A stretch of DNA of 64,000 nt from an uncultured Actinomycetes bacterium (GCA_963837155.1 CAWIMB010000001.1:683586-747585); one strand, 5' to 3'; shown: positions 22,418 to 44,457, numbered from the stretch's first letter. The notes: generated by a model from the sequence alone, not told the origin. Translations and numbers: made by a program.

Positions 22418-22460
22418 GTGGAGACGATGGGACTCGAACCCACGACCCCCTGCTTGCAAA
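22418..22460 (-). repeat. Direct copy of the 3' 42-43 nt of tRNA-Ala (distal att-type repeat)
   Basis: gTGGAGACGATGGGACTCGAACCCACGACCCCCTGCTTGCAAA is identical to 44383/44384-44425 and then diverges. Confidence 0.85.
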
Positions 22461-22566
22461 CTGCGATCGGACGCCTTCGCTAGCAGGGCGTTTTCGTAGT
22501 TCTGCAGGTCAGCGGCGTCCATGGTGTCCGCCGGTTACCGCTGGGAACCGTCAGTGACCATCCGTA

Positions 22567-23427
22567 GTGGCACGGAAGTGGCACGACACGCACTCGTGTC
22601 GCGTTTGCATCACTGCATGCGCCATTCCCGAGTGCACCTGTCACTTCGACCATGCGGAGCGCAACATGCACTCGAACTCCGATCACGCTCACTCCTCACT
22701 CGATCTCTCTACCTCCTCGAGCGTTCAACCTTCCAGCCCCTCTCATCGCATCAACCTCTCCGCGTCTTCACCTCTCGATCCCCTCACCGCCTCCACCCTC
22801 GAATCCTTCTCCAAGATCTCATACAGACTTGCCGGTTCCGCGAGCGGAACCAGCCGAAGCAGCGGAAGCTTCCTCGACGAAGCCGCGGCGGAGCTCGCGT
22901 TCGAACCCGATATCGATCCACGCGATCCCGAATCACTGAACGAGTTCGCACGTCGGTACCGCGAGCGAACCGCACGAGCGCTTGCACTCGAACAAGCCGC
23001 GATCGAGTACAACGACGCCGTACATGCAGCCGGCGTCGTGCGCAGACGCATCGAACGGCGGCAGGCAGCGCTGCGGCGGCGCGCCGAACGCAAGGACTTG
23101 AAAGAGAACCGCCGGACCAATCGGCCCGTCCACGTCGACGTCAACCCGGCCGCGTGGAACGCGGTGAAGCAGGAGGCGTTCCGCCATCGCCGCACAGTCG
23201 GGGACACGGTCGGCGAGCTCGTGTTGAGGTCTGTACAAGACGGCGTTGTCCCTCGACGCAGACCTCACCAGTCGTCTACATCGCGCTTCGCTCGCGTCTT
23301 CGTCGACGTGGAGACGTGGGGACAGTTCCGAGCACTTGCCCTTGACGCGCACGTGTCAATCGGCCGCCTGATCGGAATGCTCGTCGAGCGTGAGGCCCGG
23401 CGACTCGGTGCGGAAGGCGAGCAGTGA
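22567..23427 (+). CDS. Island protein with two RHH-like C-terminal repeats, translationally coupled to the integrase (possible excision/regulatory factor)
   Basis: 286-aa ORF with a low-complexity Ser-rich N-terminal third, so the true start is probably downstream (for example Met at 22666). The C-terminus has two similar units, VHVDVNPAAWNAVKQEAFRHRRTVGDTVGELVLRSV and VFVDVETWGQFRALALDAHVSIGRLIGMLVEREA. Its stop overlaps the integrase start (GTGA at 23424-23427). Confidence 0.5.
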   Translation: MARKWHDTHSCRVCITACAIPECTCHFDHAERNMHSNSDHAHSSLDLSTSSSVQPSSPSHRINLSASSPLDPLTASTLESFSKISYRLAGSASGTSRSSGSFLDEAAAELAFEPDIDPRDPESLNEFARRYRERTARALALEQAAIEYNDAVHAAGVVRRRIERRQAALRRRAERKDLKENRRTNRPVHVDVNPAAWNAVKQEAFRHRRTVGDTVGELVLRSVQDGVVPRRRPHQSSTSRFARVFVDVETWGQFRALALDAHVSIGRLIGMLVEREARRLGAEGEQ

Positions 23428-24566
23428 GCACCCGGCGCCGGTTCGGCGCAGTTCGTCGGCTGTCGTCAGGACGCTGGCAGGCACGCTTCCGGGATCCCGA
23501 GACCAACAGGTACCGAACCGGGGACCAAACCTTCGCGACGAAGACCGCGGCGTCGAGATGGCTGTCAGCGCTCGAGACCGACATGGCGCGCGGCGTCTGG
23601 CACGATCCAAAGCGGGGCGAGGTACTGCTCCGCGACGTCGCCGAGCAGTGGTACGCGACCAAGCTGCACCTGCGTCCGTCCACGCTGCACATCTACCGCA
23701 CGCTGCTCGACCGTCACATCCTGCCGACGTTCGCCGAGGTCCCCGTCGGCTTGATCACGACGCTCGACGTGCAGATGTGGATCTCCGACCGTCATCGCAA
23801 CACGCGCATGGGCGCGAACAGCGTCGCGAAGACATACAAGGTGCTGCGCACAATCATGGAGTCAGCCCTCGACGCGGATCTGATCGTTCGCAATCCGTGC
23901 CGCATCAAAGGCGCTGGTACCGAACGGTTGCCTGAAATGCGCTGCTCAACCGTGGAGGAGGTAGCAGCCATCGCGCAGGCCGTCGAGCCGAGGTGGCACG
24001 CGCTGATCCTCCTTGCGGCGTACTCCGGCCTGCGATGGGGCGAACTCGCGGGGCTGCGCCGCCGCTACCTAGACCCGCTCCACAAGACGGTGCGAGTCGT
24101 CGAACAATGCACCGAGGTCAACGGCCACTTCGTATGGGGCCCACCGAAGACAACCGCGGGCACGCGCACCGTCGCGCTGCCAGCCTTCATCTGCGACGTG
24201 ATGGTCGAGCACATCGCTCGCTGGAGCGAACCCTGTGTCGATGGCCTCGTGTTCGTCATGCCCGAAGGCACCCCGCTACGACGCGAGAACTTCCGCAAGC
24301 GCGTATGGCTGCCAGCGTGCCGCGCGGCCGGCATCGAAGGCCTCCGCTTCCACGACCTACGACACACCAACGCGACCCTCGCTGCAGCGAGCGGCGCGCC
24401 GCTACGCGCCGTTATGCACCGACTCGGTCACGCCTCGGCTGCGGCAGCTCTGCGCTACCAACATCAACTCGTCGGCCAAGACGTCGCGATCGCGGAGTAC
24501 CTAGAGCAGATTGGTCGCCAAACGGAGAGGCGTTCAAACGTGCGAGCCACGCGCGATCTTCGGTGA
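23424..24566 (+). CDS. int: Tyrosine recombinase / phage-type integrase
   Basis: 380 aa. The N-terminal arm-binding-type segment is RLSSGRWQARFRDPETNRYR. A core-binding domain follows, then catalytic residues in LAAYSGLRWGELAGLRR, RFHDLRHTNATLAAASG and LGHASAAAALRYQH. Confidence 0.92.
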   Translation: MSTRRRFGAVRRLSSGRWQARFRDPETNRYRTGDQTFATKTAASRWLSALETDMARGVWHDPKRGEVLLRDVAEQWYATKLHLRPSTLHIYRTLLDRHILPTFAEVPVGLITTLDVQMWISDRHRNTRMGANSVAKTYKVLRTIMESALDADLIVRNPCRIKGAGTERLPEMRCSTVEEVAAIAQAVEPRWHALILLAAYSGLRWGELAGLRRRYLDPLHKTVRVVEQCTEVNGHFVWGPPKTTAGTRTVALPAFICDVMVEHIARWSEPCVDGLVFVMPEGTPLRRENFRKRVWLPACRAAGIEGLRFHDLRHTNATLAAASGAPLRAVMHRLGHASAAAALRYQHQLVGQDVAIAEYLEQIGRQTERRSNVRATRDLR

Positions 24567-24768
24567 CCTTCGCGTACAGGCACTCAATCTGCCTACGGGC
24601 AGAACGTGTTGTTGCATCCCGGCGCCAACCCGACTGGCAGCGGGCCTGCCGCGGATTCGTAGTGCAATGCGTTCAGCGCCGCCGAGCTCATGCGCAAGGT
24701 CGAAAAGGAGGCCGGGTCTGGGGAACCCGCGTCCGAGAAGCCGAGGACCTCCTGATCCATGATCAACA

Positions 24769-25464
24769 TCAGCCGTTCCGCGGATGGGCCCGCAGATACT
24801 CGAGCAACATCTGGTCCTGTTCAGCCGGCAGCACCACGTCCGCCTGACAATGCGCCGCATTGCAGTTTCGTGGAAGGTCGTTTCGGACGTCCGAAGGACG
24901 CACATTCGCAACCAGCTTTCCGGCAGTGAAGCAACCCGTATCGAGTGCACCAGGTAACGGCGCCAGGGATTGACCCTCTTCGACAATCTTCGAGCAAGCG
25001 CCCGAGCGACGTTCGCCTGTCACGCGGACCTGAAACTGCCAGCGGCTCCCGATGATCGCGAGATATTCCCGAGGCACAGGCGACTTCGACCGGATCTCCA
25101 GGATGGTTTTCCGAACGCAACCTCCACCCCGGTGGGAGAGCGAGCAGTCTCGCAGGCTTCCAATCCCCACACGCGCGTCGTTCAAACCGAGGCCGCTATT
25201 GCGCAACCGCGCTTCCAGAAGCACCGCGTCCACGCGCGCGAGATCGGAACTGGCGTCGAACTTGTGCTGGAACTTGTCGTACTCGATCGCGCCCCCGACG
25301 AACGCGATCGCCGTCGGCCGAGTCTCCGAACGCCAAGGCGCGGCGACCACCACGCCCGCTGTCGCGGCCGCGACGAGGAGTGCAACGATCACCCACCAAG
25401 ATCGCAACCGGCGACGGTGGTCGCCGGCGTCGACCGAATGCGCCGTCTGTTCCACACCACCCAA
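24769..25464 (-). CDS. Membrane-anchored hypothetical protein (island cargo)
   Basis: 231 aa with a single N-terminal TM (WWVIVALLVAAATAGVVVAAPW) and a Cys-containing extracytoplasmic body. No motif was recognised. Confidence 0.5.
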   Translation of the reverse strand: MGGVEQTAHSVDAGDHRRRLRSWWVIVALLVAAATAGVVVAAPWRSETRPTAIAFVGGAIEYDKFQHKFDASSDLARVDAVLLEARLRNSGLGLNDARVGIGSLRDCSLSHRGGGCVRKTILEIRSKSPVPREYLAIIGSRWQFQVRVTGERRSGACSKIVEEGQSLAPLPGALDTGCFTAGKLVANVRPSDVRNDLPRNCNAAHCQADVVLPAEQDQMLLEYLRAHPRNG

Positions 25465-25532: not shown

Positions 25533-25943
25533 TCAGGGCACCAGTTCGAATGCTTCGACATGCCGCGGCCGAACCGCTCGGAAGTCACGATTATTGAGCG
25601 TTGCCACCGTCGCGACGCCCAGTCGCTCCGCGACGGCGACAATCGACGCGTCAACGAAGCCGAGCCCGAGATCGGCGTATTGCTCGATGAGACCGATGCA
25701 GCGTTCGCAGTCGCCCATCGACAGATCGACCACCCGCACGTCGCCGGTCGTCACGAGGCGGAGCAGAGCGGCCTCCGCGGCGACACCCAGGCGGCGCTCG
25801 ATCAGCCACGCCGACTCCGCGATCACCGGAGCTGTCGTCACCAACTCACCTCGATGTGCGCCCATCACATCCACGCACGCGGCGTGCTGCGCCTCGCGGC
25901 GATCGGCCGCGGCGAGGAACACACCCGTGTCGACGAGGAGCAC
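25533..25943 (-). CDS. vapC: PIN-domain toxin (VapC family)
   Basis: The start was trimmed to GTG at 25943 (VLLVDTGVFLAAADRRE...). The PIN acidic residues lie in LVDTG, VIAESAW and GFVDASIVAVAERLG...TLNNRDF. The gene begins 8 nt after the antitoxin stop. Confidence 0.85.
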   Translation of the reverse strand: MLLVDTGVFLAAADRREAQHAACVDVMGAHRGELVTTAPVIAESAWLIERRLGVAAEAALLRLVTTGDVRVVDLSMGDCERCIGLIEQYADLGLGFVDASIVAVAERLGVATVATLNNRDFRAVRPRHVEAFELVP

Positions 25944-25950
25944 GCGGCGG

Positions 25951-26199
25951 TTAGATGCCCTCGGCGAGCTTGCGGTCGGCAGCCTCTCGGCGGATCCGCT
26001 TGATGTCGATCGGCTCCTGCCCGCCGGAGTCTCCGACGCCGAAGAACGCGTCGAGCGCATCGCCCGGCTCACGACCCTCGGCCGGAAGGTGCTCTCGGAT
26101 CACCTCTGCCGCGAGCTCTTCCGTCGTCATCCCGCGCCGCTCGGCCTCGACCTCGAGCCGGTGCGCCAACTCGTCAGGAAGCGGAACACTGACGGACAT
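25951..26199 (-). CDS. vapB: Ribbon-helix-helix antitoxin (VapB/CopG-like)
   Basis: 82 aa: MSVSVPLPDELAHRLEVEAERRGMTTEELAAEVIREHL. This is the typical RHH N-terminus, and the gene sits directly upstream of the PIN gene. Confidence 0.85.
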   Translation of the reverse strand: MSVSVPLPDELAHRLEVEAERRGMTTEELAAEVIREHLPAEGREPGDALDAFFGVGDSGGQEPIDIKRIRREAADRKLAEGI

Positions 26200-26335
26200 G
26201 CCACAAGTCTAGGAGCGCACCGGAACCGGTGGATACGCTCACCGTTGTGGCACGGAAGTGGCATGCGGATGGCACGACGAGCGCGGTGAACACTGCACAA
26301 CGCATCGCGCAACCTCGTGACGTGCGAAAACTCAG

Positions 26336-26381
26336 TGGAGACGATGGGACTCGAACCCACGACCCCCTGCTTGCAAAGCAG
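26336..26381 (-). repeat. Direct copy of the 3' 46 nt of tRNA-Ala (internal att-type repeat between the two island units)
   Basis: TGGAGACGATGGGACTCGAACCCACGACCCCCTGCTTGCAAAGCAG is identical to 44384-44429 and then diverges. Confidence 0.85.
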
Positions 26382-26748
26382 AACAACGCACTTTCGCGAT
26401 CAGCTGCGATTCGCGAAAGCGCTGGTCACAGCGTTCGTGTGGTGTCGTCGGATACCGCGCGGTGACGCGCAATGATCGGTCGTTAGGTCACGGTTAGGTC
26501 ACGCGCGCTCACGAGCACGACGGCGCGGCCGCGGTGTCACAGTACGAGAGACCGTGCACATCGATACGACGGCCAGCGTCATCTCGACGAATGCGCGCAG
26601 GCAGTCGGACGATTGCTGGCCGATCGGGCCCAGGCCGATCGGATGGGCGCGAGCGCGCAAGAGCGGGCACGAGGTCGCTTCCTCGCGGACCGGCATCTCA
26701 CCGAGTGGGCCGAGCTGTTCGGGCGCGTTCTCGAGACGTGAGCGGCCT

Positions 26749-27153
26749 TCAGGGCGTTGGGTCGATGCGGCGGCCGGTGATGTTTTCGGCTCGGATGCGA
26801 ACGAAGCGGTCGCGGACCTCGCCGGCCCACGCGGGAAGGTCAAGGGCGCGCGCCCGATCGAGGTCGTCCGGATGCACGATTTCCTCAGCGGCACCGACGA
26901 CGTTCACGCTCCATCCGGCTTGGAGGTCGCTGTCGTACGCGTCGACCTCGAATGCGATCGTCCGATGCAACGCCGCGGCAATGAGCTTCTCGCCAGGGGC
27001 TGTACGGAACACGACGTCGCCGTCCAGGAGCGCGTACACAACGGGCAACACGGCCGGGCGGTCGCTGCAGACAGCCACGCGTCCCACACGCTGCGTCCGC
27101 AGAAAGACCTCGCACTCGTTGCGGTTGAGGATCGCAAGCCCGTAGCTGCTCAT
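26749..27153 (-). CDS. Pyridoxamine 5'-phosphate oxidase (PPOX)-family flavin/deazaflavin-binding protein
   Basis: MSSYGLAILNRNECEVFLRTQRVGRVAV...PVVYALLDGDVVFRTAPGEKL...GWSVNVVGAAEEI. This is the split-barrel PPOX pattern. The upstream Met at 27198 is an alternative start. Confidence 0.8.
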   Translation of the reverse strand: MSSYGLAILNRNECEVFLRTQRVGRVAVCSDRPAVLPVVYALLDGDVVFRTAPGEKLIAAALHRTIAFEVDAYDSDLQAGWSVNVVGAAEEIVHPDDLDRARALDLPAWAGEVRDRFVRIRAENITGRRIDPTP

Positions 27154-27239
27154 GGCGCGACCGTATGCAGAGGGATGCGCGCGCGGGAAGGGCCACAAGT
27201 CCCTGCGTCGACGGGGATCGTAACTGGCAGAATGCGATC

Positions 27240-27850
27240 ATCGCTGTGACCCCTGCCGCATCCAGGCCCGAGACCGTTCTGGCACACATTGCTGTGGGTG
27301 CCGACATCATCGTCCCGCTCGCGAACGGCGAGCCGCGTGTGCTGACCCAGAGGCTCGATGCGTACACACACGAACTCACGCGGGTACACGTGCATCAGAT
27401 GCATGCCCTCTACCATCACCCCTACCCTCACAACGCGTACGACCGCCTGCACGCATCGGGCGCGAACACTGCTTCGTGTCGATCAACGCGACCGTCGAGG
27501 TCGACCTCCTCGGGCAGTGCAACTCGGAGATGATCGCAGGGCGCTACTACTCGGGTAGCGGTGCGCAGACGGATTTCACGCGGCGCGATGTACAGCGAGC
27601 GCGGGATGGGTTTCGTCGTGGTGCACTCGACCGGCGACGAATCGGCGTCCCGGATCGTCTCAACGCTCCGCCCGGCGCGCCCGTCACGACGATGAGAAAC
27701 ACTGTCGACGATGTCGTCACCGAGTACGGCGTCGCCGAGCTCCGCGGCCGCTCGATCGCGCAGCGAGCGGAAGCGCTGATCGGGATTGCCCACCCGAAGT
27801 TCCGTGACACGCTTGCTCAGGACGCGCGCGAATTCGGATACCTGCGCGGA
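27240..27850 (+). pseudogene. Acetyl-CoA hydrolase / 4-hydroxybutyrate CoA-transferase family remnant (internal deletion plus frameshifts)
   Basis: An N-terminal piece (VGADIIVPLANGEPRVLTQRLDAYTHELTRVHVHQMHAL) is joined directly to a C-terminal piece (SINATVEVDLLGQCNSEMIAGRYYSGSGAQTDFTR...VTTMRNTVDDVVTEYGVAELRGRSIAQRAEALIGIAHPKFRD). The pieces lie in different frames and the middle of the family is missing. Confidence 0.6.
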
Positions 27851-27974
27851 GTACTCGAACCGGGCTCGGCAGTCCGGGCGTCGGGAGGCCAAAGGTCTCT
27901 GCCTCGCGTCGCGTTCGACTCTGTCGCTGAGACTCCCGGTCGACAGACACTGGACGAGGCCGTAGGAGACAATC

Positions 27975-28505
27975 ATGACACTCGGAGTTGGAGAAGAGTT
28001 CGTCGCCCGGGACGGAACTGTCGTGCACCTGCGCGCCATCCGTCCAGATGACGAGACTCGGCTCGCCGCCTTTCACGATCGCCTTTCCCCAGCGAGCCAG
28101 CAGCTCCGATTCTTCAGCGTGCACCCGCACCTTCAACCGGCGGAAGTGCGGCGCTTCGTCAACGTCGATGGCACGCGGCGCGTGGCGCTGGTTGCCACTC
28201 GAGACGGCGACATTGTGGGCGTCGCGCGGTTCGATCGTGTCGCCGGGACGACCGACGCCGAAGCCGCGTTCGTCGTCCAGGACGACCTCCAAGGACGCGG
28301 GCTCGGTACTGCGCTGCTCGAACACCTCGCACACGTTGCGTGCGAGAAGGGTGTGACCCGGCTGGTCGCCCAGACGCTGCCGGACAACACACGAATGCTC
28401 CACGTGTTCCGACAGTATCGACCCGACCTGACCGTCGCCTATGCCCACGGAGTCATCGAGGTCACGATTCCGCTCGATTCGAACGGAGGCGATCACAATG
28501 ATTGA
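27975..28505 (+). CDS. GNAT-family N-acetyltransferase (Pat-like GNAT domain type)
   Basis: 176 aa with LRAIRPDDETRLAAFHDRLSPASQQLRFF and the acetyl-CoA motif A, VQDDLQGRGLGTALLEHL. Confidence 0.85.
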   Translation: MTLGVGEEFVARDGTVVHLRAIRPDDETRLAAFHDRLSPASQQLRFFSVHPHLQPAEVRRFVNVDGTRRVALVATRDGDIVGVARFDRVAGTTDAEAAFVVQDDLQGRGLGTALLEHLAHVACEKGVTRLVAQTLPDNTRMLHVFRQYRPDLTVAYAHGVIEVTIPLDSNGGDHND

Positions 28506-28977
28506 CCCGACAGTCGCACAAGAGTTTCTCGCCCAGCAACGGTTGGCAGTGGTCGGTGCGTCCGACCACCCGCAGAGCTTCGGCCGCACGGTGTACTGCG
28601 CCTTGCGCGACCACGGCCACGACGTCGTCGCCGTAAATCCCACTTGCGAGTCGGTCGCCGGCGACCCCTGCTACGCGGACCTTGCGAGCGTGCCCGGCGA
28701 CATCGACGGCGTTGTCGTGATGGTCCATCGCGATCGGGCCGCTGACGTCGTGCGCAGGGCCGCAGAACGCGGCATCACCCGTGTCTGGCTCTTCAAAGGC
28801 CTGGGCGGCCCCGGCGCCGTCTCCGATGACGCGCTGGAGTCTTCCGCGATACACGGCATGGATGTTGTCGCGGGCGCATGCCCAATGATGTTCCTCGAGC
28901 CCGTCGGCTGGTTCCATCGAGTCCACCGCGCAGCCCGCCGCACGAACGGTTCCCTCGCTCGTGTGCCCGCAACGTGA
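28498..28977 (+). CDS. CoA-binding domain protein (YccU-like)
   Basis: The start was trimmed to ATG at 28498 (MIDPTVAQEFLAQQRLAVVGASDHPQSFGRTVY...VNP...GDPCYADLASVPGDIDGVVVMV). It overlaps the GNAT stop by 8 nt. Confidence 0.85.
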   Translation: MIDPTVAQEFLAQQRLAVVGASDHPQSFGRTVYCALRDHGHDVVAVNPTCESVAGDPCYADLASVPGDIDGVVVMVHRDRAADVVRRAAERGITRVWLFKGLGGPGAVSDDALESSAIHGMDVVAGACPMMFLEPVGWFHRVHRAARRTNGSLARVPAT

Positions 28978-28980
28978 GCG

Positions 28981-29767: not shown

Positions 29768-29872
29768 CGCATCAACAACGTCTGAACTTCAGTTCCCAGC
29801 CGCGGTGCGATGGCGGCTGCCGGCGATCTCCGCGACCGCGTGAAGTGGGTTCAGTGCACGTCAGTGGTTCGC

Positions 29873-32587: not shown

Positions 32588-32596
32588 GAGCAATCC

Positions 32597-35628: not shown

Positions 35629-35697
35629 TGACGCGTTGCAGAGCTCGGGCGCGATCCTGGCGGCCGGTCGTGCTCGTCCCAGCGGAGCCGTAGGTCG

Positions 35698-36910: not shown

Positions 36911-37112
36911 GGGCCGCGACCCTACGGCGGACACCTGGCCGGGAACGCCCGGCACCGATGCGGAACTCCAGGGTGCGAGTCTCGGATGCCCTGCATTGGT
37001 CAGCGGCGCGGCTCCTTCGGGCCTGCCTACCACGCGATGATCGAAAGTGAGACCGACGGAGTAGGGCAACACGGTCGACGATGATCGAACGACGAGGCGC
37101 ACGCGATGGCGA

Positions 37113-37754: not shown

Positions 37755-37932
37755 CACCGAGCAGTAATGCCGCAGGTCACCAGCAAGACGCGGCGCGACA
37801 GCGCAGGTCAGGAAGGCGCGTCGAAAACGTTCGCAACGTCGCGGTCCCTCGTATGCAAGCTCAACGCACCCACGAGCCAGGCCACTCGCCGCGATAGCGG
37901 GCGTGTTGAGCCTCGAGGCCGCACGGCAGGCA

Positions 37933-38469
37933 CTACAGCTCGAGGCCGTGGTCGAGCGCCGGCATGCGTTGTTCGCGTGCGAGGGCGCGATCGGCGGCGT
38001 CAACTGCGCGTCGCCAGGCGTGTGGTTCGGGGAGCGGTGCCCGCGCTGGGATGGAGTCGAGGAGGCTCGCGACTGCGATCGTCTGAGGCGCGCGATGGAC
38101 GAGTGCAGCAAGTTCGTGGGGGTAGCTGCTGATTCCGATTCCAGATCGCGCGCCGATGGTCGGAAAGCTTCGACGACCGGGCGTCTGGTCGTACCGATCA
38201 GCAGCGGCCTGCCGGTCTCGCCAGGTCTCGAGGTGCTCTGCGATGCCGCACCACGCGTTGAGACCACCTCGCGTGGACGGCGGCGTTCCGAGCACATGCC
38301 ATAGCTCGCCGGTCGGGTCGGTTGTTGCGGCGACAACGCGGTCAGGTCGGCTGTTGTCGAGCGCGTCGTCGAGATCACCGATGGCAATGGTGAAGCGCGC
38401 GCGTTCGTTCGCTGTTTGTCTCGCGGCCTCCGCCCACGTTTGGACCGCTTGCGAAGGCGTGCGCTTTTC
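37933..38469 (-). pseudogene. Start-less ORF fragment, possibly the C-terminal remnant of a mobile-element relaxase/helicase
   Basis: The stop-to-stop frame reads ...TWAEAARQTANERARFTIAIGDLDDALDNSRPDRVVAATTDPTGELWHVLGTPPSTRGGLNAWCGIAEHLETWRDRQAA... The composition is protein-like. The LGxPP...W...AE..E.WR motif recalls the C-terminal tails of actinobacterial TraA/TrwC-type proteins. This is from memory only and is weak evidence. Confidence 0.25.
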
Positions 38470-38644
38470 ACGATCTTCGCCAAACGAACGCCACTCTCAC
38501 CGCCGCGCGCGTCGCACCTCTACGAACCGTGATGGCGCTATCAGCATCGACTCGACGGCCAAGACGTCGTCATCGGAGGCGTCCTCCACCAGGTGGTGCG
38601 AAGGCATCAACGAGACTCGACAACAAGTTCACTAAGTTTCTCGC

Positions 38645-39372
38645 GTGAACTTTGCCTCGGGCGTCTTGGCCGGCGTCGTAGGGACTCTCATTGCGTCGGC
38701 TCTTCTATACGTGCTCGCCAGGACACGTGGTTGGATACGCACGACGACTCGCACCAGACGGTCTGATCGTGGACTTCTACTTCGCCTACGAGCCGCGGGG
38801 GTGTCGAATTTCTACGGCAGCCGAAGTGACTACGTGCTCCACCGTAGTGCCCCTCGTCTAACCGATTTTCTAGCTACGGCTGATCGCTCAATTGTTGTCG
38901 CCGGCTATTGGCTCGGTCACGGCAACGAGGCGGAGAACATCGCCAGTGCACTAGCAGACATGTTGGAGCGACGTACCGAGCTGTCGGCCACCATCGCACT
39001 GATCGACCCAACCAGCCCGCACCTCTCCCAGCTGGCGGATTACCTTGACCTGCCTTTTCAAGAGCTCCGCGACCGCATCACCTCGTCACTCCGCAATCTC
39101 TATCGCGGAGCGAGGACATGTCTGCTGGGGCTCGCGGCCGACTCGACCTGCGGGTCTACCGTGACCTTCCGATGGCATCCGTCATCCTCCTCGACGCCGA
39201 CAGTGAACGCGGCCGCATCCAACTCGATTTCAAGGCCTTTGGCGCTCCGCGGGATTCGAGCTTCGGACTTGAGTTGCGCGGGACAGACAAGCCGCTCTAC
39301 GGCGTGTGCAAACGAGCGTGGACGGGGCTCGTTCAGCGCGCTGTCGCCATGGATCCCAACGTCCACCTGTGA
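38645..39372 (+). pseudogene. Membrane-anchored DUF5919-like protein (gene A of the candidate two-gene system), single frameshift as assembled
   Basis: GTG start, then TM segment FASGVLAGVVGTLIASALLYVL. The body is FYGSRSDYVLHRSAPRLTDFLATADRSIVVAGYWLGHG...TIALIDPTSPHLSQLADYL...SLRNLYRGAR. The frame switches at about 39111-39118 into LDLRVYRDLPMASVILLDADSERGRIQLDFKAFGAPRDSSFGLELRG...CKRAWTGLVQRA. It is collinear with the DUF5919 domain of actinobacterial XRE-type proteins as I recall it. No HKD motif is visible. Confidence 0.55.
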
Positions 39373-39386
39373 CTACGCCGACACAC

Positions 39387-40262
39387 ATGACCTCGTCTCC
39401 GCCTCGAGTGATATTCAACTTCACATCAAAGTGCAATATGGGTTGTGCGTTCTGTTACATCCCGTTCGACGGCCACCCAATCGAGCAGGCTGACGCGGTT
39501 GACGTACTCGGCGAGGTGCTCCGACGCGGGCCCCTTAGCATCACATTCGGCGGCGGCGACCCTCTCATGTTCCCGTACCTCGAACAGCTGATCTCGACGG
39601 TACGAAAGCGGGCGCCTTCGATCTTTCTACAGCTAGATACAAACGGCATTGCCGGTACACCTGACCGATTGTTGCGCATCACGCGAGCTGTAGACCTTGT
39701 AGGCCTTCCGCTGGACGGCGTCTCCAACTCAGTCGTCCGCGCGATGCGCGGCTCGACCGACCATTGGACGCGGATCTTGGCACTGCTCAAGGAGCTCTCC
39801 GCCGCCGGGCTAGCCGCCAAAGTAAACACCGTCGTGAGCCGAAGGAACATCAGGTCCTTGGAGGACGTGGGGGACGCCTTGACCGACATGCGGATCGCGC
39901 GATGGTCACTCTATGAGTTCTGGCCATTGGGCAGACGCGCACGCGAGAACAGCGCGGCGTTCGGCATCTCTACTACTGATTTCTGGGCGGCGGTGCACAA
40001 CATGAGAGCCCGCTTTCCCCATCTCAACATCGAATCGAGCACCGCTCGTCAACGGAGTCGCGCGTACTTCTTCGTTACGCCGACCGGTCGCGCTTACGTT
40101 GAGGACGAGCTTTCGGAAGGCGGGTATCGCGACCTCGGGAATGTTCGCTTCGACAGCGACGTATGGCAGCGCTGGGGCGATTACGTCGACACCTCGAAGA
40201 ACCGCGAGCGCTTTGAGGCACGGCGGGACTCGCCCCCCAAAGGTCTTGCTCGGCTTCCGTGA
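39387..40262 (+). CDS. Radical SAM enzyme with viperin-like architecture (gene B of the candidate system)
   Basis: MTSSPPRVIFNFTSKCNMGCAFCYIPF carries the CxxxCxxC cluster in a viperin-like context (NxxFTxxCNxxCxFC). Also present are ITFGGGDPLMF and LQLDTNG. LPLDGVSNSVVRAMRG parallels ISCDSF..IGRG, AKVNTVVSRRNI parallels FKINSVINRFN, and RIARWSLYEFWPLGRRAREN parallels VRWKVFQCLLIEGEN. The size is about 291 aa. The start lies 14 nt after the gene A stop. The ORF-track start at 39306 was rejected because it overlaps gene A. Confidence 0.8.
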   Translation: MTSSPPRVIFNFTSKCNMGCAFCYIPFDGHPIEQADAVDVLGEVLRRGPLSITFGGGDPLMFPYLEQLISTVRKRAPSIFLQLDTNGIAGTPDRLLRITRAVDLVGLPLDGVSNSVVRAMRGSTDHWTRILALLKELSAAGLAAKVNTVVSRRNIRSLEDVGDALTDMRIARWSLYEFWPLGRRARENSAAFGISTTDFWAAVHNMRARFPHLNIESSTARQRSRAYFFVTPTGRAYVEDELSEGGYRDLGNVRFDSDVWQRWGDYVDTSKNRERFEARRDSPPKGLARLP

Positions 40263-40645
40263 CGGCGGCTGCCGCCAAGCGTGCCTGCTGCGCGCGCGCG
40301 CCTTCTGAGCTCCTGATTTTGCGAAGGTCATTGCGTGCGATGGCTCCTGCGGTGTCGACCACCGGGCACGCGTCGAGCGGTGCGTAGAACAAAGTCAGCG
40401 CACCCCGTCCGAGCAGAAGCTCATCGGTAAGACAGCAGCTTGGGTCAGAGTTTCAGACGGCGGCGCTAGCAACGCCGACCTAAGCCCCGAGAACATCGCC
40501 CAACTACTGGCAAGCGAGGCACGCGGCGCAAAACGCACTACAGCATGGGCGGCATTCGCACTGCGCGCTTGCTTGTTTCGTTCCTCAGAAGTTGACTTGG
40601 TTCAACGAGCGGGACGGCGCGGGAACTGGAAGGGTGGGGCCGACC

Positions 40646-41368
40646 ATGAGACTGCTTCGATCCCGTCTCGTGGTCGTGTGCGTTGCGAGCACTTGTACAG
40701 CGTTGGTCGTTGGTGGCATCGCATGGGCGGTGCAGAGTCCCGTCGACAGCAACCTTGTCGTTAATGCGTGTTACAACGCCAAGAACGGGGCGATCAAGCT
40801 AGACGTCAAGGGCGCGTGCCCCCGCAGCGGCACCAACACTCCGATCTCATGGAATGCGCGCGGTCCGCAAGGCGAGGCCGGCGAAGCTGCGTCACCTCGC
40901 GTGGTCGCAGTTGCTGACGGCTCTTGGCAACCAAGTACGCCATCCCAGCCGCTTGTGAGCGGCGCGCTGTTCGCACAGGACAACGACACCTGCCTCGGAA
41001 CGGTCGGCTACCCGTGTACCACGGTGCTCAGTGCTGACTGGACAGCTCTGCCGGCGGTCTCCCTCACACTGCCTGCTACGTCACAAGCGGCGACCCTCGA
41101 TGCACGATTCTCCGCCTCGGTGTCGTGCTTCGGAACCAGCGTGGACAAATACATGCGCATCGTCGTCAACGGAGAGCCGGTAGGCGACGCCGCACCGCTC
41201 GCGGCTCTCCCACCCATGACGCCGCAACAGGCGGAGTTGCCCGTGACGGTTGAACGCACCGTACCGATCGCGGCAGGAGCCGACCACGACGTGCAGGTCG
41301 AGGTACGGGTTGGTTCGAACTCAGTGTGCGCGATGGGATGGCATCTGATCGCCGAAGCAATCAGCTAA
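40646..41368 (+). CDS. Secreted/anchored hypothetical protein, paralog 1 (shared Cys-motif leader module plus a short GXY stretch)
   Basis: The start was trimmed to MRLLRSRLVVVCVASTCTALVVGGIAWA. The module is VQSPVDSNLVVNACYNAKNGAIKLDVKGACPRSGTNTPISWNARGPQGEAG, followed by a unique C-terminal domain. Confidence 0.65.
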   Translation: MRLLRSRLVVVCVASTCTALVVGGIAWAVQSPVDSNLVVNACYNAKNGAIKLDVKGACPRSGTNTPISWNARGPQGEAGEAASPRVVAVADGSWQPSTPSQPLVSGALFAQDNDTCLGTVGYPCTTVLSADWTALPAVSLTLPATSQAATLDARFSASVSCFGTSVDKYMRIVVNGEPVGDAAPLAALPPMTPQQAELPVTVERTVPIAAGADHDVQVEVRVGSNSVCAMGWHLIAEAIS

Positions 41369-41414
41369 CACAATGCGATGGGCAACCACGCATCAGACGC
41401 AGGGGAGACGGAGA

Positions 41415-42567
41415 ATGAGAGTCTGGCGCTCACGCGTGTTCGCGGTGTGCATAGCAAGCGCGGTCACTGCGATCGTCGTCGGAGGTGTCGCGTGGGCTAT
41501 CCAGAGTCCCGTCGACGGCAACGGCGTAATTCACGCGTGTTATAACCCCCACAATGGCGACCTGCGTCTCAACATCAAGGGAAGCTGCCCAACCCGGGGG
41601 GCGAAGCACGCCGCTCACATGGGCCGCGGTCGGACCACAGGGACCGAAGGGCGACCCCGGCCCGCAAGGTCTTACGGGTCCGGCGCGCGCGAGCGCACTG
41701 TCGCAGCGCATCGCGACGCTGCACTGGTATGGAGACGAGACATCATTTGACTCCTTCGCAATCCCCGAGCCGGCTCGCGGATTGGTGTTCGACGGCACAT
41801 ATACGTGGGCGCTCACGGGCGGACTGTCGAAGGTCGATCCCGTGACTGGGGGTGTCGTCGCAACGTACCCGTCGCCCGATAATCCATATGCCGCAGCCGT
41901 TGAGGGCGGTCACCTATGGGTCACAGACGCGAATTCCGACACCGTAAACAAGGTCGACAGGTCGAGCGGCAACGTTGTCGGCTCGTTCCCGAGCGGTGGC
42001 GCACACACAACAGGCATCGCGTTTGACGGGACGCATTTCTGGGTTGCCCACGCTGAGAGCACGAACGTCACAGAGATGTCCCTATCAGGCAGCATCGTCG
42101 GTTCGACAAACATCGGAGCAAACGGCGCCACGGATGTGCTGTTCGACGGAACCAACGTGTGGGTGGCCCACTCCGCGGTCAAGCAGCTCGTTGAAATCTC
42201 ACCGACCACTGGCAACATCCTCCGGACCGTGTCCCTTGACGGTCAGCCACGCGGACTCGTGTACGACGGTACGAACATCTGGGCAGCAGACCAGAGCAGC
42301 GACAGCGTCGCCAAGGTTCAAGCGAGCACAGGGACCATCGTGGGCACGTTCGGTCTTGGGTCGGGCTCGCAACCGTCCGGCATGACGTTCGATGGAACTC
42401 ACATCTGGGTCTCGGGCGAAGGCAACGGCCACGTGAGCGAGCTTCTCGCGAGCTCGGGTGCCGTCGTTAATACGTTCGCAATCGGACCTCGTCCGAACCG
42501 GATGATCTTTGACGGAACGGACGTGTGGGTAGCTGACGTCAACCTTCCAATGTTGACGAGGTTGTAG
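41415..42567 (+). pseudogene. Secreted paralog 2: shared leader module, collagen-like GXY stretch and a 7-bladed beta-propeller (NHL/Vgb-like). Frameshifted in a G6 run.
   Basis: MRVWRSRVFAVCIASAVTAIVVGGVAWAIQSPVDGNGVIHACYNPHNGDLRLNIKGSCPTRG is followed by the G6 tract at 41596-41601. The frame then reads STPLTWAAVGPQGPKGDPGPQGLTGP, followed by 7 repeats of the FDGTxxWVA type. Confidence 0.7.
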
Positions 42568-42725
42568 TGCGCGCGTGCCCCACTACAACTGCACAGGTCG
42601 AGGAGATCCGCAACGGCTCCCTTCGCCATACTGTGCATCCCCGCTGTCCCGGACAGCTTGGTGTTCCGCAGGTTTTCCGCCGTTGTGTTGTTGGATGCAT
42701 GCCAGTGACCTTGAAGGAAGGTCGG

Positions 42726-42933
42726 CATGCCGAAGGCTCATCCGGCGGAGTTCCGCGCTCGCGCGGTCGTCATAGATCGCCGAGGAGCTCAGGATCCCCG
42801 GATCCCTCGAGATCCACCGCTAGTCGCGCGGCACCTCCAGCGCGCCGCGGGTGCATGCTGAGCTTCGACTCGGTGCCGGGATCACCGTCACCGCCGACCG
42901 GCTTGCCTATCGATTGGAGGAGGCATCGGGATA
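42726..42933 (+). mobile_element. IS3-family transposase remnant (orfA and orfB N-terminal fragments, multiple lesions)
   Basis: MPKAHPAEFRARAV is the typical IS3 OrfA start. It is followed out of frame by IAEELRIPGSLEIHR, and then by RVHAELRLGAGITV, which is the OrfB N-terminal motif. No intact transposase or inverted repeats were identified. Confidence 0.55.
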
Positions 42934-43095
42934 GCGTCTCGCGAACTCGATCGCTAGCTGGCATGCCGAAGCTTTGGGCGCGGAAATGGTGTTCGCCATT
43001 GGGAGGCGACATCAAGCCTTGCCACTAGAGGATAAACGGGGCCTGTTTGGGGTCACTTTGCTTACGCGTACCGGAGCGGACGCCGAGGAGTACGC

Positions 43096-43977
43096 ATGAC
43101 GTCTGGCGAGTATGTCCCCCACCAAAGGCTCAGTCTGCGGACTCATGCCATCTTCAATGAGAAGTGGCTCCAGCAACGAATCGCTGACGACCCCGCCCTT
43201 CTCGGTCTTGGCGAGGTCGACGTCAAGGACCTCGAACGCACGCAGCCGCGCGCGGGACGGTTGGACCTCCTGCTCTATGACCCAGAATCGAATACGCGGT
43301 ACGAGGTCGAGATTCAGCTAGGTGCGACCGACGAGTCGCACATCATCCGCACAATCGAATATTGGGACATCGAGCGCCGTCGCTACCCCCAATACGACCA
43401 TGTCGCGGTGATCGTCGCCGAGCACATCACGGCACGCTTCTTCAATGTGATCTCGCTGTTCAACGGGTTCATTCCCATCATCGCGGTTCAGGTATCGGCT
43501 CTAGCAGTGAACGAAGCGGTCACCCTCGTGTTTACGACGGTGCTCGATCGCTCGACACTCGCCGTCGAGGAGGACGAGGACCAAGGCGAGCCTCGGGATC
43601 GAAGCTACTGGGAACGCAAAGCTTCCCCGACCACCTTGGCGATGACGGATCGGCTGCTCGATCTGATCACGCAGTCCGCGGAACCTCGTGCACAACTGAA
43701 GTACAACAAGAACTACATCGGCCTTTCGGTTGACGGCGTCGCGTCAAACTTCATGACCTTCCGCCCGCGACGCGGTCACGTTCTCCTAGAAGCGAAGATT
43801 CCTCGCTCAGACGAACTCACGCTGCGCTTGGAGGACGCCGGGCTCGTGCTCCTCACATACCAAACGCGATGGGGCTACTACCGCATCCAGATCGCTCAAG
43901 AAGACCTGGAAGCGCGCACCGGCATCCTGAGCGACATCGCAAAGCTCGCGCGCGACGGCTACGGCGCAGGTCGATAG
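43096..43977 (+). CDS. PD-(D/E)XK (NucS/RecB-like) nuclease-fold protein with an additional C-terminal domain
   Basis: A GAGGAG SD precedes the start. The 293-aa protein reads NEKWLQQRIADDPALLGLGEVDVKDLERTQPRAGRLDLLLYD...RYEVEIQLGATDESHIIRTIEYW, which is the endonuclease-like D...ExE/Q pattern. The C-terminal part, LKYNKNYIGLSVDG...FRPRRGHVLLEAKIP, resembles DUF5655-type domains. Confidence 0.65.
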   Translation: MTSGEYVPHQRLSLRTHAIFNEKWLQQRIADDPALLGLGEVDVKDLERTQPRAGRLDLLLYDPESNTRYEVEIQLGATDESHIIRTIEYWDIERRRYPQYDHVAVIVAEHITARFFNVISLFNGFIPIIAVQVSALAVNEAVTLVFTTVLDRSTLAVEEDEDQGEPRDRSYWERKASPTTLAMTDRLLDLITQSAEPRAQLKYNKNYIGLSVDGVASNFMTFRPRRGHVLLEAKIPRSDELTLRLEDAGLVLLTYQTRWGYYRIQIAQEDLEARTGILSDIAKLARDGYGAGR

Positions 43978-43980
43978 TCG

Positions 43981-44220
43981 ATGCACAAATACGACCCGCT
44001 CTCCGATCATCTTGCACAGCTGCAGGGAGACGGCCCCTGGCGGGTGCGGTTCGGGCAGATCGACCGACTCGTTGGCGGCTTACCTCGCTCGGCACGCATT
44101 TATCGCGAATGGTGGGATCACTCAGCGCGCCACGTCCAAGCCGCGGCCTGGGTGGACAACGATCTGCGCGTCGTCGATGTCGACCTCGAAGCCGAGACAG
44201 TCACGTTCGAACGCGCGTAG
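43981..44220 (+). CDS. Small conserved-looking hypothetical protein adjacent to the nuclease
   Basis: 79 aa: YDPLSDHLAQLQGDGPWRVRFGQIDRLVGGLPRSARIYREWWDHSARHVQAAAWVDNDLRVVDVDLEAETVTFER. The start lies 3 nt after the upstream stop. This pattern is seen in small island-borne proteins. Confidence 0.6.
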   Translation: MHKYDPLSDHLAQLQGDGPWRVRFGQIDRLVGGLPRSARIYREWWDHSARHVQAAAWVDNDLRVVDVDLEAETVTFERA

Positions 44221-44383
44221 GCGAAGGCGGTCCAGACCTCGGGCAGACCTCGGAGACCTCATTCAGACCTTCGTACGAAGGTCTCCGTCGGTCTTCGTCG
44301 GTCGCGGTCGGTCGGTGTTCACGACTGCTGCCAAACAGATCCCTACCTGCTGCTTCGCACGTCGACGCAGGTAGCGCAGTGAG

Positions 44384-44457
44384 TGGAGACGATGGGACTC
44401 GAACCCACGACCCCCTGCTTGCAAAGCAGGTGCTCTAGCCAGCTGAGCTACGTCCCC
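44384..44457 (-). tRNA. tRNA-Ala (anticodon UGC), CCA not encoded
   Basis: The reverse complement GGGGACGTAGCTCAGCTGGCTAGAGCACCTGCTTTGCAAGCAGGGGGTCGTGGGTTCGAGTCCCATCGTCTCCA folds as a cloverleaf. It has a 7-bp acceptor stem with the G3:U70 Ala identity pair, the anticodon loop TTTGCAA, and the T-loop TTCGAGT. Confidence 0.95.

Follow-up and report, generated by a model that had tools for sequence, protein, structure and literature searches.

The tRNA-Ala gene, its partial copies and element B

The window analysed here, a contiguous stretch of 64,000 nucleotides, contains a single intact tRNA-Ala(UGC) gene at positions 44384-44457(-), which is recognised both by ARAGORN and by the Rfam tRNA model (70.4 bits against a gathering score of 29), in agreement with the earlier note. 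The 3′ 42-46 nt of this gene constitute att copy 1, the integration target, and two further copies are found on the same strand: copy 2 (26334-26381, -) comprises the 3′ 46 nt of the tRNA (the identity block proper, 26336-26381) plus 2 nt of trailer, and copy 3 (22418-22460, -) comprises its 3′ 42 nt (22419-22460) plus 1 nt. These extents were read from runs of identity and bear out the exact, co-oriented copies of 46 and 42-43 nt that had been claimed. The cores of the three copies are identical over 42 nt; in their 5′ halves, copies 2 and 3 show no relationship to tRNA-Ala. A 40-mer taken from the tRNA-Ala 3′ half has exactly three exact matches in the 64 kb (22418, 26335 and 44383, all minus), with no matches in 100 shuffles and none expected by chance, and blastn-short revealed no further degenerate tRNA-Ala copy in the window, the longest other match being 11 nt. 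The proposal that these 42-46-mers are att sites and not a dispersed repeat stands in that no extra copy exists within the 64-kb window. We also note that ARAGORN labels copy 2 (26335-26407) as tRNA-Ala, while the Rfam tRNA model does not. Copy 3 is the attR of the unit called here element B (3,917 bp from copy 3 to copy 2), and copy 2 is at the same time the attL of element B and the attR of unit A (18,048 bp from copy 2 to the tRNA).

Judged from its sequence, element B is a complete and intact integrative element. Its tRNA-distal arm (22461-22665, -), which shares 74-79% identity with its counterparts at six loci from other genomes, contains the arm motif CGTGCCACTTCCGTGCCAC at 22567-22585, 106 nt from the core. 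This motif occurs only twice in the 64 kb (expected 0.08), just inside each end of the element. In the tRNA-proximal arm (26240-26333, -; 75-81% identical to the proximal arms of L056, L059, L060 and L061) it is found as CATGCCACTTCCGTGCCAC at 26247-26265, 71 nt from the core, and forms three GTGCCA-type heptamers at 11-nt spacing. The phased GTGCCAC repeats are putative arm-type integrase-binding sites. The tyrosine integrase reported in the earlier note is indeed encoded at 23424-24566(+) (380 aa; Pfam PF00589, 3.3e-20; PHROG_1, 1.4e-64). Its residues R204, H310, R313, H336 and Y345 align with the R/H/R/H/Y positions of PDB 3nkh, which we take to be the conserved catalytic positions of tyrosine recombinases, and its predicted catalytic set is complete; PF26003, an N-terminal arm-binding-type domain, is present in homologues of this integrase. 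The element further contains vapC, coding for a PIN-domain toxin (25533-25943, -; Pfam PIN, 9.1e-16; likely GTG start at 25943), with a gene for a vapB-like antitoxin of 82 aa directly upstream (25951-26199, -; a weak NCBIfam match to RelB/BrnA-like proteins; PHROG 5333, 1e-8), and a cargo ORF of 231 aa (24769-25464, -) that has an N-terminal hydrophobic segment and no match in Pfam, NCBIfam, PADLOC or PHROGs. The composition of element B is not distinct from that of its flanks.

The integrase gene is preceded by orfX (22666-23427, +), whose stop overlaps the integrase start (GTGA). OrfX has 253 aa, as does its nearest homologue P0121 (85% identity), and has no sequence match in Pfam, NCBIfam, PHROG or PDB. 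AlphaFold2 predicts a disordered N-terminus of 65 residues, a long helix of 60 residues and two tandem ribbon-helix-helix units, modelled as two beta-alpha-alpha units with a pLDDT of about 90. The best fold matches found by Foldseek, modest ones (E about 5e-3) with a sequence identity of only 10-14%, are F-plasmid relaxosome chains and single-chain Arc. Like the C-terminal half of OrfX, these proteins carry two ribbon-helix-helix units per polypeptide as a pseudo-dimeric DNA-binding module, but OrfX adds the disordered N-terminus and the 60-residue helix, and it sits in an integrase operon, not in a relaxosome as do the small relaxosome chains, presumably TraY. By fold and position, OrfX may be guessed to be a candidate DNA-architectural, directionality or regulatory factor.

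Element B was compared with eleven related loci from other genomes. In ten of them, a perfect 42-nt core is located upstream of int and separated by 106-107 nt from the arm motif, and orfX is conserved in seven to eight (called or aligned in eight). The B-type distal copies are each identical to the tRNA over exactly 42 nt, the identity boundary falling at the anticodon stem-loop. Since orfX-int occupies the tRNA-distal end across the related loci examined, with the integrase 1-2 kb from the distal copy, the layout of element B is the family norm; what had been regarded as an uncommon arrangement is invariant for this integrase family. Five related loci show an intact tRNA-Ala(UGC) and an arm motif at the opposite end, with 70-73 nt between motif and core where measured (L056, L060, L061 and L146), and the sizes of the B-type elements at five loci are 3.4, 3.5, 7.8, 10.9 and 10.9 kb. 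At L144, the proximal att site of a B-type element is a 46-nt partial copy, the same arrangement as here. Cargo differs widely across the family (GmrSD and Mrr-STAND, Fic or KAP NTPase; vapBC in element B), and L142, 87% identical at the nucleotide level to positions 22417-24505 of the window, differs both in its cargo, whose translation reads by eye as a protein kinase-like ORF, and in its neighbour. The B-type family gave nothing in IMG/VR, an attP-pattern scan of viral contigs gave no match, and the collections searched hold no near-identical genome, the best match of the flanking solute-binding protein being 73% at the amino acid level among species-representative genomes and that of the integrase 89% in the protein collection. 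Searches of these collections yielded neither an empty site nor a single-unit variant nor a circular junction, and the mobility of this copy of element B is therefore inferred from the family comparison.

Unit A and the remnant beyond copy 3

The tRNA-distal arm of unit A (26382-26520, -) carries an exact 11-nt tandem repeat, CGTGACCTAAC x2 (26482-26503), located 101-122 nt from copy 2, a geometry equal to that of the element B arm repeat, and has no adjoining integrase. The tRNA-proximal arm (44200-44383, -) has AGACCT/GGTCT repeats at ~10-nt spacing (44234-44313), includes a palindrome of 20 nt (44265-44284) and lacks the B-type GTGCCAC motif. The repeats of the two arms look different, GTGACCTAAC in the distal and AGACCT in the proximal one, and the att identity of unit A extends over 46 nt as compared with 42 nt in the B-type distal copies. 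An arm (GGAGACC...GGTCT) resembling the proximal one of unit A was noticed by eye beyond the distal copy of L059. No homologue of unit A is present among the fetched loci.

The distal two thirds of unit A (26521-38453) read as a decayed metabolic mosaic. They comprise Pyridox_ox_2 (26749-27198, -), a C-terminal fragment only of a CoA-transferase (within 27224-28048, +), GNAT (27966-28502, +), CoA_binding_2 (28441-28977), DUF6920 (28961-29767), a split Pyr_redox_2 (30911-32273), a C-terminal DsrE fragment (32804-33067), DSBA (33075-33686), a multicopper oxidase (34052-35119), a (GGGAGCAGC)x10 microsatellite (35313-35402), a degenerate tRNA-Met-like sequence (35456-35533, +), which gives a sub-threshold tRNA match of 17.5 bits, and an MFS fragment (37113-37754). 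The last two had been described in the earlier note, which had also listed an IS3 remnant and a relaxase-like fragment; among stop-to-stop ORFs of at least 70 aa at 26382-44383, neither a transposase nor a relaxase Pfam domain was found. The same note had described this unit as devoid of a recombinase. This holds for a working one, and the truncated and split genes likewise confirm its decay, but the 3′ remnant of a tyrosine integrase gene is preserved at 38454-38631(+). This frameshifted piece corresponds to residues about 305-375, with HDLRQT replacing HDLRHT (tblastn 67% and 47% identity; integrase-family HMM positions 305-333, E 7e-6, and 343-372, E 0.01). The remnant has the orientation of the element B integrase and lies 5.9 kb from the tRNA and 12 kb from the distal copy.

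The tRNA-proximal third (38632-44217, +), annotated with Pfam, PADLOC and NCBIfam, contains an unknown gene (38645-39493), a viperin-like radical SAM gene (39306-40262), a second unknown gene (40592-41368), a beta-propeller-like gene (41554-42567), a gene for a widespread 293-aa unknown (43096-43977) and DUF7662 (43978-44217). This segment has an atypical composition (GC 0.617). The region of 38.45-44.38 kb is compositionally foreign, its tetranucleotide distance being 0.264 as compared with 0.123 +/- 0.023 for 6-kb chunks of the flanks (about 6 SD), and the sharp composition change at about 38.4 kb coincides with the integrase remnant.

The earlier note had taken the three copies to delimit an island of ~22 kb, but the array extends beyond 22418. 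The 405 bp at 22013-22417(-), outside the interval then considered and called here remnant D, are about 80% identical over ~400 nt past the core to the tRNA-proximal end of element B (25880-26381, pairwise alignment), and are thus the stump, the tRNA-proximal end, of another B-type element; blastn gives 76-81% against the proximal arms of L059, L060 and L061. Within remnant D, the arm motif is degenerate (22332-22349), vapB is a pseudogene carrying two frameshifts (22035-22284), and vapC is represented by its first 5-6 codons. The remnant stops at a deletion scar at about 22013, 12-27 nt before the start codon of the flanking solute-binding lipoprotein (SBP) gene (20568-22001, -; Pfam SBP_bac_8, 3.9e-36), which is a GTG at 22001 or 21986, homologues aligning from residue about 52. 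Since it ends at this scar, the original distal boundary of the array has been lost.

Serial integration and competing explanations

We consider it very probable that this tRNA-Ala gene, which stands alone, is a hotspot with a head-to-tail array of at least three site-specific integrative elements, of which B is intact, A is decayed and D is a stump. The three exact co-oriented copies and the B-type family comparison both bear out the serial site-specific integration into the 3′ end of one tRNA-Ala gene that had been suggested. Each element's attP would have carried a copy of the tRNA 3′ part, and each integration would have rebuilt the tRNA from element DNA and displaced the old 3′ end outward, leaving one partial tRNA copy per event. 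As the 42-nt identity of element B starts at the first base of the anticodon loop, strand exchange may have taken place in or near this loop. OrfX, translationally coupled to the integrase, would most likely bend DNA or set directionality, or else repress the int operon; the probable role of vapBC is to stabilise the element, and element B should still excise through recombination between copies 2 and 3. Unit A is decayed and presumably the older unit, the structure itself giving no order of integrations. It probably consists of two elements fused by one internal deletion, which would have taken out one att copy and the recombinase genes, and it would now be fixed, with mobilisation in cis by a matching integrase as the most that could be expected. 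Remnant D would be what is left of a third, B-type element, truncated by the deletion that also took the outer boundary.

A possible but rather doubtful alternative is that one 18-kb element, decayed in place, makes up the whole of unit A, its integrase having been inactivated and moved inward by later insertions or rearrangements. Just one att copy is found between A and B, with a repeat-bearing arm at each end of A; GACCT is common to both arm repeat types, and an internal degenerate tRNA-Ala copy is missing, all of which would suit one element. However, the distance from the distal copy is 12 kb for the integrase remnant and 1-2 kb for the integrase in every related element, the composition changes sharply exactly at this remnant, and the repeats of the two arms differ in sequence and orientation. 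We find it improbable that, instead of separate units, the whole 22 kb moves as one composite through copies 1 and 3, using the integrase of B and with copy 2 as a passive internal site. With all 42 nt of the core shared by the three copies, copies 1 and 3 could chemically undergo strand exchange, and transfer of CIME-ICE tandems has been reported in other bacteria (PMC5704250). However, every B-type proximal att site is flanked by the GTGCCAC motif, which the arm adjoining the tRNA lacks, so that the attL for composite excision would be without the proximal arm sites of element B; moreover, copies 2 and 3 are accompanied by the two arms of element B itself, and A-like content with a B-type module is seen in no related locus.

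Still less probable is a degraded prophage or conjugative element (ICE/AICE) in place of small, non-self-transmissible islands. Although the integrase belongs to the phage-integrase superfamily (PHROG_1) and Replic_Relax, ArdA and a large serine recombinase adjoin the B-type distal copy of L145, ORFs of at least 70 aa at 22-44.4 kb contain no phage structural, replication, relaxase, coupling-protein or FtsK/TraB-type domain, complete family members measure only 3.4-10.9 kb, and the family is absent from IMG/VR. The idea that the copies are left over from duplicated tRNA-Ala genes or form a dispersed repeat, unrelated to integration, is effectively refuted: ARAGORN does score copy 2 as tRNA-Ala, but the 5′ half of neither copy 2 nor copy 3 has any relation to the tRNA, and neither copy is accepted by the Rfam tRNA model; the identity ends at the anticodon stem-loop and measures exactly 42 nt across 11 independent loci; the copies enclose conserved arms and an integrase specific to the family; and they are found nowhere else in the window. 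We retain serial integration of separate elements as the reading of this locus; tandem accretion at tRNA genes is a well-known route of bacterial gene gain, of which the present instance is real but ordinary.

Comparison with known integrative systems

In elements of the pSAM2, SLP1 and mycobacteriophage L5 type, as in element B, the tyrosine integrase gene adjoins attP, some 40-60 nt are shared with the 3′ part of a tRNA that is rebuilt on integration, arm-type sites flank the core, and a small accessory gene is coupled to int. They either are phages or carry genes for replication and transfer, and they use helix-turn-helix proteins as excisionases. Differently from them, element B has neither replication nor transfer genes, and the partner coupled to its integrase is a 253-aa tandem ribbon-helix-helix protein without family assignment.

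Recombinase-less units flanked by att sites and their tandem accretion are documented elsewhere (PMC5704250; PMC3146451). Similarly to our locus, the ssrA islands of Dehalococcoides form tandems downstream of one small RNA gene, are bounded by repeats of its 3′ end and combine a conserved integration module beside one att site with freely varying cargo, and some units without the module are discussed as cis-mobilisable or fixed (PMC3146451). In their case the enzyme, DsiB, is a large serine recombinase and the repeat, 20 bp long, comes from the tmRNA gene, whereas here a tyrosine recombinase, arm-type repeats and 42-46 nt of a tRNA are found; their module adjoins attL and has six genes as compared with two here (PMC3146451).

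Tandem accretion with CIMEs is known from the ICESt1-related elements of Streptococcus thermophilus and from the IME_Sag2603_tRNAlys composite island (PMC5704250). As proposed here, integration takes place into the 3′ end of a gene, the resident decays to a recombinase-less unit keeping its att sites, and the next element enters an att site, so that three direct repeats enclose the resulting tandem; in descriptive terms unit A qualifies as a CIME, and element B corresponds to the incoming element (PMC5704250). The present array differs in its host, an uncultured Acidimicrobiia-type actinobacterium, in the much smaller size of its elements (3.4-11 kb), which are without conjugation or mobilisation genes, and in the additional truncated unit, counted as a fourth. 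The att sites of A and B also belong to different identity classes (46 and 42 nt) and are accompanied by different arm repeats, which makes mobilisation of unit A in cis by the element B integrase doubtful.

The tRNA-Ala(UGC) target and element B

The window holds a single intact tRNA-Ala(UGC) gene, without an encoded CCA, at 44384-44457 on the minus strand, on which ARAGORN and Rfam concur. Counting identical bases backwards from the discriminator base, copy 2 (26336-26381) corresponds to the 3′ 46 nt of this tRNA followed by two identical trailer bases, and copy 3 (22419-22460) to its 3′ 42 nt followed by one; both are 100% identical to the tRNA 3′ end and co-oriented with it. A 40-mer of the 3′ half of the tRNA has exactly three occurrences in the window, all of them on the minus strand, and was not met in 100 shuffles, while short-word blastn revealed no extra degenerate copy in the window, the longest other match being 11 nt. 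As copy count, identity runs and blastn agree, the coordinates and lengths that an earlier note had assigned to these copies by inspection are right. ARAGORN additionally labels copy 2 together with upstream sequence (26335-26407, minus strand) as a tRNA-Ala. The 5′ half of this call is unrelated to tRNA and the Rfam tRNA model is silent there; it is a false positive that automated annotation could spread. On the 5′ side of the tRNA, approximately seven tandem repeats of 243 nt (81 aa; 45466-47974) are found in and just upstream of a 965-aa ORF (46418-49315, plus strand), whose product resembles by eye a surface protein with Ig-like repeats. Inside this ORF, downstream of the repeats, there is a CRISPR-DR20 match below threshold (48633-48669), which is probably spurious.

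Element B, the 3.9-kb distal unit between copies 3 and 2, carries orfX (22666-23427, plus strand), whose start was set by the equally long, 85%-identical homologue P0121, the closest relative of OrfX, and a gene for a tyrosine integrase of 380 aa (int; 23424-24566, plus strand), whose start overlaps the orfX stop. These are followed on the minus strand by an ORF of no assigned function (24769-25464; 231 aa), by vapC, encoding a PIN-domain toxin (25533-25943), and by vapB, encoding its antitoxin (25951-26199). The integrase, whose best match in a collection of 5.8 billion proteins is 89% identical, matches Pfam PF00589, PF14659 and PF22022, and its homologues carry the Integrase_N_phage domain. 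Its residues R204, H310, R313, H336 and Y345 align with PDB 3nkh; catalytic residues are thus present, in element B only. The arm motif GTGCCACTTCCGTGCCAC occurs twice in the window (expected 0.08), at 22567-22585, 106 nt inside copy 3, and at 26247-26265, 71 nt inside copy 2. It consists of GTGCCA(C/T) heptamers of the same orientation at 11-nt spacing, two in the distal and three in the proximal arm. Since the motif is found at both ends and both arms align with the corresponding arms of related elements (74-81% identity), B has both attP arms of its own. Its tetranucleotide composition is not atypical compared with the flanks. With a catalytic recombinase, boundaries at the tRNA-derived att copies and the att architecture of its family, B has the make-up of a tRNA-targeting tyrosine-recombinase element, and we regard it as a complete member of a recognisable family, copy 2 being its putative attL and copy 3 its putative attR.

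The B-type family and a possible role of OrfX

B was compared with the DNA surrounding 11 homologues of the integrase or of OrfX that lie on other contigs. Ten of the 11 loci have a perfect copy of the 42-nt core on the opposite strand from int, with GTGCCACTTCCGTGCCAC lying 106-107 nt further in, ahead of int; in eight of these ten, an orfX call or alignment was also obtained upstream of int. The location of the integrase near the distal repeat, at first considered unusual, is therefore the invariant layout in related loci. In five loci the contig also covers the other end of the element, where an intact tRNA-Ala(UGC) is found, with GTGCCACTTCCGTGCCAC present again and, where measured, 70-73 nt from the core. 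Element sizes are 3.4 kb (L059), 3.5 kb (L146), 7.8 kb (L061) and 10.9 kb (L056 and L060), and in all 11 distal copies the 42-nt identity begins at the first anticodon-loop base. The arm-core-arm signature of attP was found neither in IMG/VR viral contigs nor in any fetched locus.

Cargo differs widely within the family and frequently belongs to defence or toxin types, including GmrSD with Mrr-STAND, Fic and a KAP NTPase, as well as vapBC in B. The related locus L142, 87% identical at the nucleotide level to window positions 22417-24505, carries a different cargo, a protein kinase-like ORF (by eye from the translation), beside a different neighbour; this related module with other cargo and surroundings provides comparative evidence that the orfX-int module moves. 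In a further locus (L144, 9752-16695), the tRNA-proximal att of a 6.9-kb B-type element is a 46-nt partial tRNA copy and not the tRNA itself; the tandem order is the same as in the window and the neighbour is unrelated. As L144 shows this arrangement independently of the window, tandems of the 46-nt class with B-type elements appear to recur. The CCGCGAGAG trailer shared by L146 and L057 was considered as a sign of a tandem in both loci. For L146 this reading was dropped, as the intact tRNA of that locus is itself followed by this trailer, which may be no more than attB sequence.

Other recombinases were observed next to B-type distal copies. A different integrase gene or fragment ends 14 nt from this copy in L142 (1156-1413) and another starts beside it in L057 (5369-5683), which is why several integrase lineages, differing in gene layout, appear to share this tRNA-Ala site. 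Beyond the B-type distal copy of L145 (2980-9859) lie genes for an nSTAND/TrwB-like NTPase, Replic_Relax, ArdA, an HTH protein and a large serine recombinase of 632 aa, which ends beside the tRNA-Ala copy; this module may represent a conjugative-type element at the same hotspot.

OrfX itself has no sequence match in Pfam, NCBIfam, PADLOC, PHROG or PDB, and its relatives amount to only 29 database clusters. AlphaFold2, run with 25 homologues, models it as a disordered N-terminus (residues 1-65), a helix of 60 residues and two beta-alpha-alpha units (151-192 and 205-251) with pLDDT of approximately 90. The best matches among solved structures are accessory chains of about 110 residues in F-plasmid relaxosome entries (TM 0.65-0.73 on target), single-chain Arc being also among them. 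Model and structure matches together mark OrfX as a tandem ribbon-helix-helix DNA binder. Considering this fold, its position and the translational coupling of its gene to int, our guess is that it may act as a DNA-bending or directionality factor, or as a repressor of the operon.

In the mechanism that we propose for B, the GTGCCA(C/T) heptamers would be arm-type sites bound by the N-terminal domain of the integrase, and strand exchange would take place in or beside the anticodon loop. Williams, in 2002, reportedly described the anticodon loop as a tRNA sub-site class used by many integrases. Integration would swap the 3′ part of the tRNA for the element-borne copy, which is identical, so that the tRNA remains functional. 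Excision of B by recombination between copies 2 and 3 would leave on the chromosome the arm of A, the 46-nt copy and CGCGAGAGG, in this order, and vapBC plausibly stabilises B. We further put forward, as a tentative and rather unlikely proposal, that orfX-int defines an undescribed family of minimal cassettes of 3.4-11 kb, self-integrating and non-self-transmissible, that exchange toxin-antitoxin and defence cargo at tRNA-Ala(UGC) in uncultured Acidimicrobiia, and in which the directionality or architectural factor would be OrfX and not an Xis of helix-turn-helix or winged-helix type.

Decay of unit A and the outer boundary of the array

The identity of copy 2 extends over 46 nt, as opposed to 42 nt in every B-type copy; the arm upstream of it, the distal arm of the 18-kb proximal unit A, therefore stems from another element type. 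This arm contains two exact tandem repeats of the 11-nt sequence CGTGACCTAAC (26482-26503), 101-122 nt from the core, a position matching that of the arm repeat of B. The arm beside the tRNA carries AGACCT/GGTCT repeats at a spacing of about 10 nt and a 20-nt palindrome, and a similar arm was seen by eye beyond the distal copy in L059. The B motif is absent from this tRNA-adjacent arm, and GTGCCAC is absent from both arms of A.

Unit A was described in the earlier note as recombinase-less, which holds for intact genes only: tblastn and a family HMM detected the 3′ stump of an integrase gene (38454-38631, plus strand), which is frameshifted and altered at one residue of the catalytic box. HMMs made from 105 integrases and five OrfX sequences found no other remnant than this stump. 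Further signs of decay are a CoA-transferase C-terminal domain standing alone, the C-terminal part of DsrE alone, a split Pyr_redox_2 gene and an MFS fragment, the last of which had been noticed at first reading. The IS3 remnant and relaxase-like fragment proposed at the same time were not recovered: there is no transposase domain in Pfam searches at E ≤ 0.01, and no relaxase among ORFs of at least 70 aa. For this purpose another 56 stop-to-stop ORFs, concatenated as chimeras, were also searched with Pfam, a design that fragments below about 70 aa could escape; the search yielded the CoA-transferase C-terminal fragment, GNAT and DUF7662, and nothing else.

The segment of A between the stump and the tRNA (38.45-44.38 kb) has a GC content of 0.617 and a tetranucleotide distance from the flanks about 6 SD above that of equal-sized flank chunks; the remainder of A is mildly atypical in composition. 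Given that the integrase gene is the distal-most gene in the B family, the simplest reading is that A represents two element remainders fused by deletion: 38.45-44.38 kb would be what is left of the proximal part of one element, and 26.38-38.45 kb would stem from the distal part of another, a single deletion having joined them while taking out an att copy and recombinase genes. The main alternative is that A is a single rearranged element, in which the stump would have been displaced from a distal location. Searches for homology to A, by tblastn of all window ORFs against the eight integrase loci fetched first (L054-L061) and by tblastx of the L144 element beside the 46-nt copy, returned nothing except the integrase remnant.

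Several cargo genes and sequences of A deserve mention. A perfect (GGGAGCAGC)x10 microsatellite (35313-35533 region, plus strand) is followed after about 50 nt by a tRNA-Met(CAU)-like sequence, resembling by eye an initiator tRNA. This is the degenerate tRNA-Met of the first reading, present at 35456-35533 (plus strand) with a sub-threshold Rfam tRNA score of 17.5 bits, and it could be either a tRNA gene in decay or the relic att left by an element that targets tRNA-Met. The radical SAM ORF at 39306-40262 (plus strand) has viperin as its best match (PADLOC pVip, 8.8e-26) and scores 80.8 bits against the curated cut-off of 180 for NCBIfam viperin_w_prok; by sequence it is viperin-like and not a confirmed pVip, and the island may here carry a divergent antiviral gene as cargo. 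A 293-aa protein of no known function (43096-44217 region, plus strand), whose N-terminus looks by eye PD-(D/E)xK nuclease-like, is encoded directly before a DUF7662 ORF. It has more than 515 relatives (50-68% identity) in very different metagenomes, with any tRNA nearby in four of 80 loci and tRNA-Ala in none of the 80; it is a widespread cargo gene, uninformative about A.

The array does not stop at copy 3. The 405 bp beyond it (22417 down to 22013), here called D, are approximately 80% identical to the tRNA-proximal end of B and also match the proximal arms of L059, L060 and L061. They comprise a degenerate arm motif (22332-22349), a vapB pseudogene with two frameshifts (22035-22284) and the first 5-6 codons of vapC. 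D is the stump of another B-type element and, at 80% identity to B, stems from an independent integration and not from a local duplication. A deletion took the remainder of D and the original outer repeat of the array, so that copy 3, presented in the earlier note as the limit of the island, does not delimit it. We make no claim on the order of integration, as both orders yield the observed junctions. Overall, the core of that note, serial integration at tRNA-Ala with a probably live small and a dead large element, is right, whereas its account of the outer boundary, the supposedly unusual layout, and the IS3 and relaxase fragments is wrong or falls short.

The homology of D ends near 22013, 12-27 nt before the start codon (21986-22023 region, minus strand) of a gene for a solute-binding protein (SBP; 20568-22001, minus strand). 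As this deletion scar lies so close to the start codon, the native upstream region is absent, and transcription of the SBP gene may start at the promoter of the relic vapB. The best relatives of the SBP are at most 73% identical (aa) and occur in MAGs labelled Acidimicrobiia or Actinomycetes. A synteny search anchored on this gene, comprising one contig scan of species-representative genomes, returned 53 loci, none of which has any other gene in common with the window; no tRNA lies near the SBP homologue in the 20 best-matching of them. No empty attB was seen among these loci, which at ≤73% aa identity do not include close relatives of the host.

Significance and relation to known systems

The array, from an uncultured and little-studied actinobacterial class, is a clean, well-bounded case of a single tRNA at which an island has been built up through successive integrations, decay and deletion. 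It provides parts usable for this clade, namely the 42-nt core, phased GTGCCAC arms at fixed distances and a two-gene integration module, with which islands could be searched for in Acidimicrobiia metagenomes or an integrating vector built. It also carries a lesson for annotation: direct repeats alone under-call arrays, as the outermost unit here is without its repeat. The phenomenon is textbook, and the only mildly novel thread is that orfX-int may represent a new family of minimal cassettes whose accessory factor is a ribbon-helix-helix protein.

Regarding classification, an IS-bounded composite transposon is not supported, as Pfam searches of ORFs of about 70 aa or more showed no transposase gene or fragment (E ≤ 0.01). 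No structural genes of a prophage or satellite were detected by Pfam; PHROGs matches are to the integrase and to two families of unknown function (vapB and, weakly, vapC), and the B-type family was not found in IMG/VR. Likewise, ORFs of at least 70 aa between 22 and 44.4 kb contain no relaxase, Rep, coupling-protein or FtsK/TraB-type Pfam domain of an ICE, AICE or IME. With neither conjugation, mobilisation, replication nor phage structural domains, and no presence in IMG/VR, the array is not filed as ICE, IME or prophage.

It is instead a tandem accretion at a tRNA, a structure of familiar type, here in a lineage that has received little study. The pattern is that of streptococcal ICE, IME and CIME composites, in which integration is followed by decay to an att-flanked, recombinase-less unit, and a further element then integrates at an att site (PMC5704250). 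A fits the description of a CIME, being without functional integration or transfer genes and flanked by perfect copies 1 (the tRNA 3′ end) and 2 with repeat-bearing arms. Its CIME-style mobilisation by the integrase of B would be doubtful, since the arms of A are without GTGCCAC and its identity class differs. The ssrA islands of Dehalococcoides are likewise tandem, with a conserved integration module located beside one att site and a cargo that varies freely; they differ in using a serine recombinase and a 20-bp repeat, as against a tyrosine integrase and 42-46 nt here (PMC3146451).
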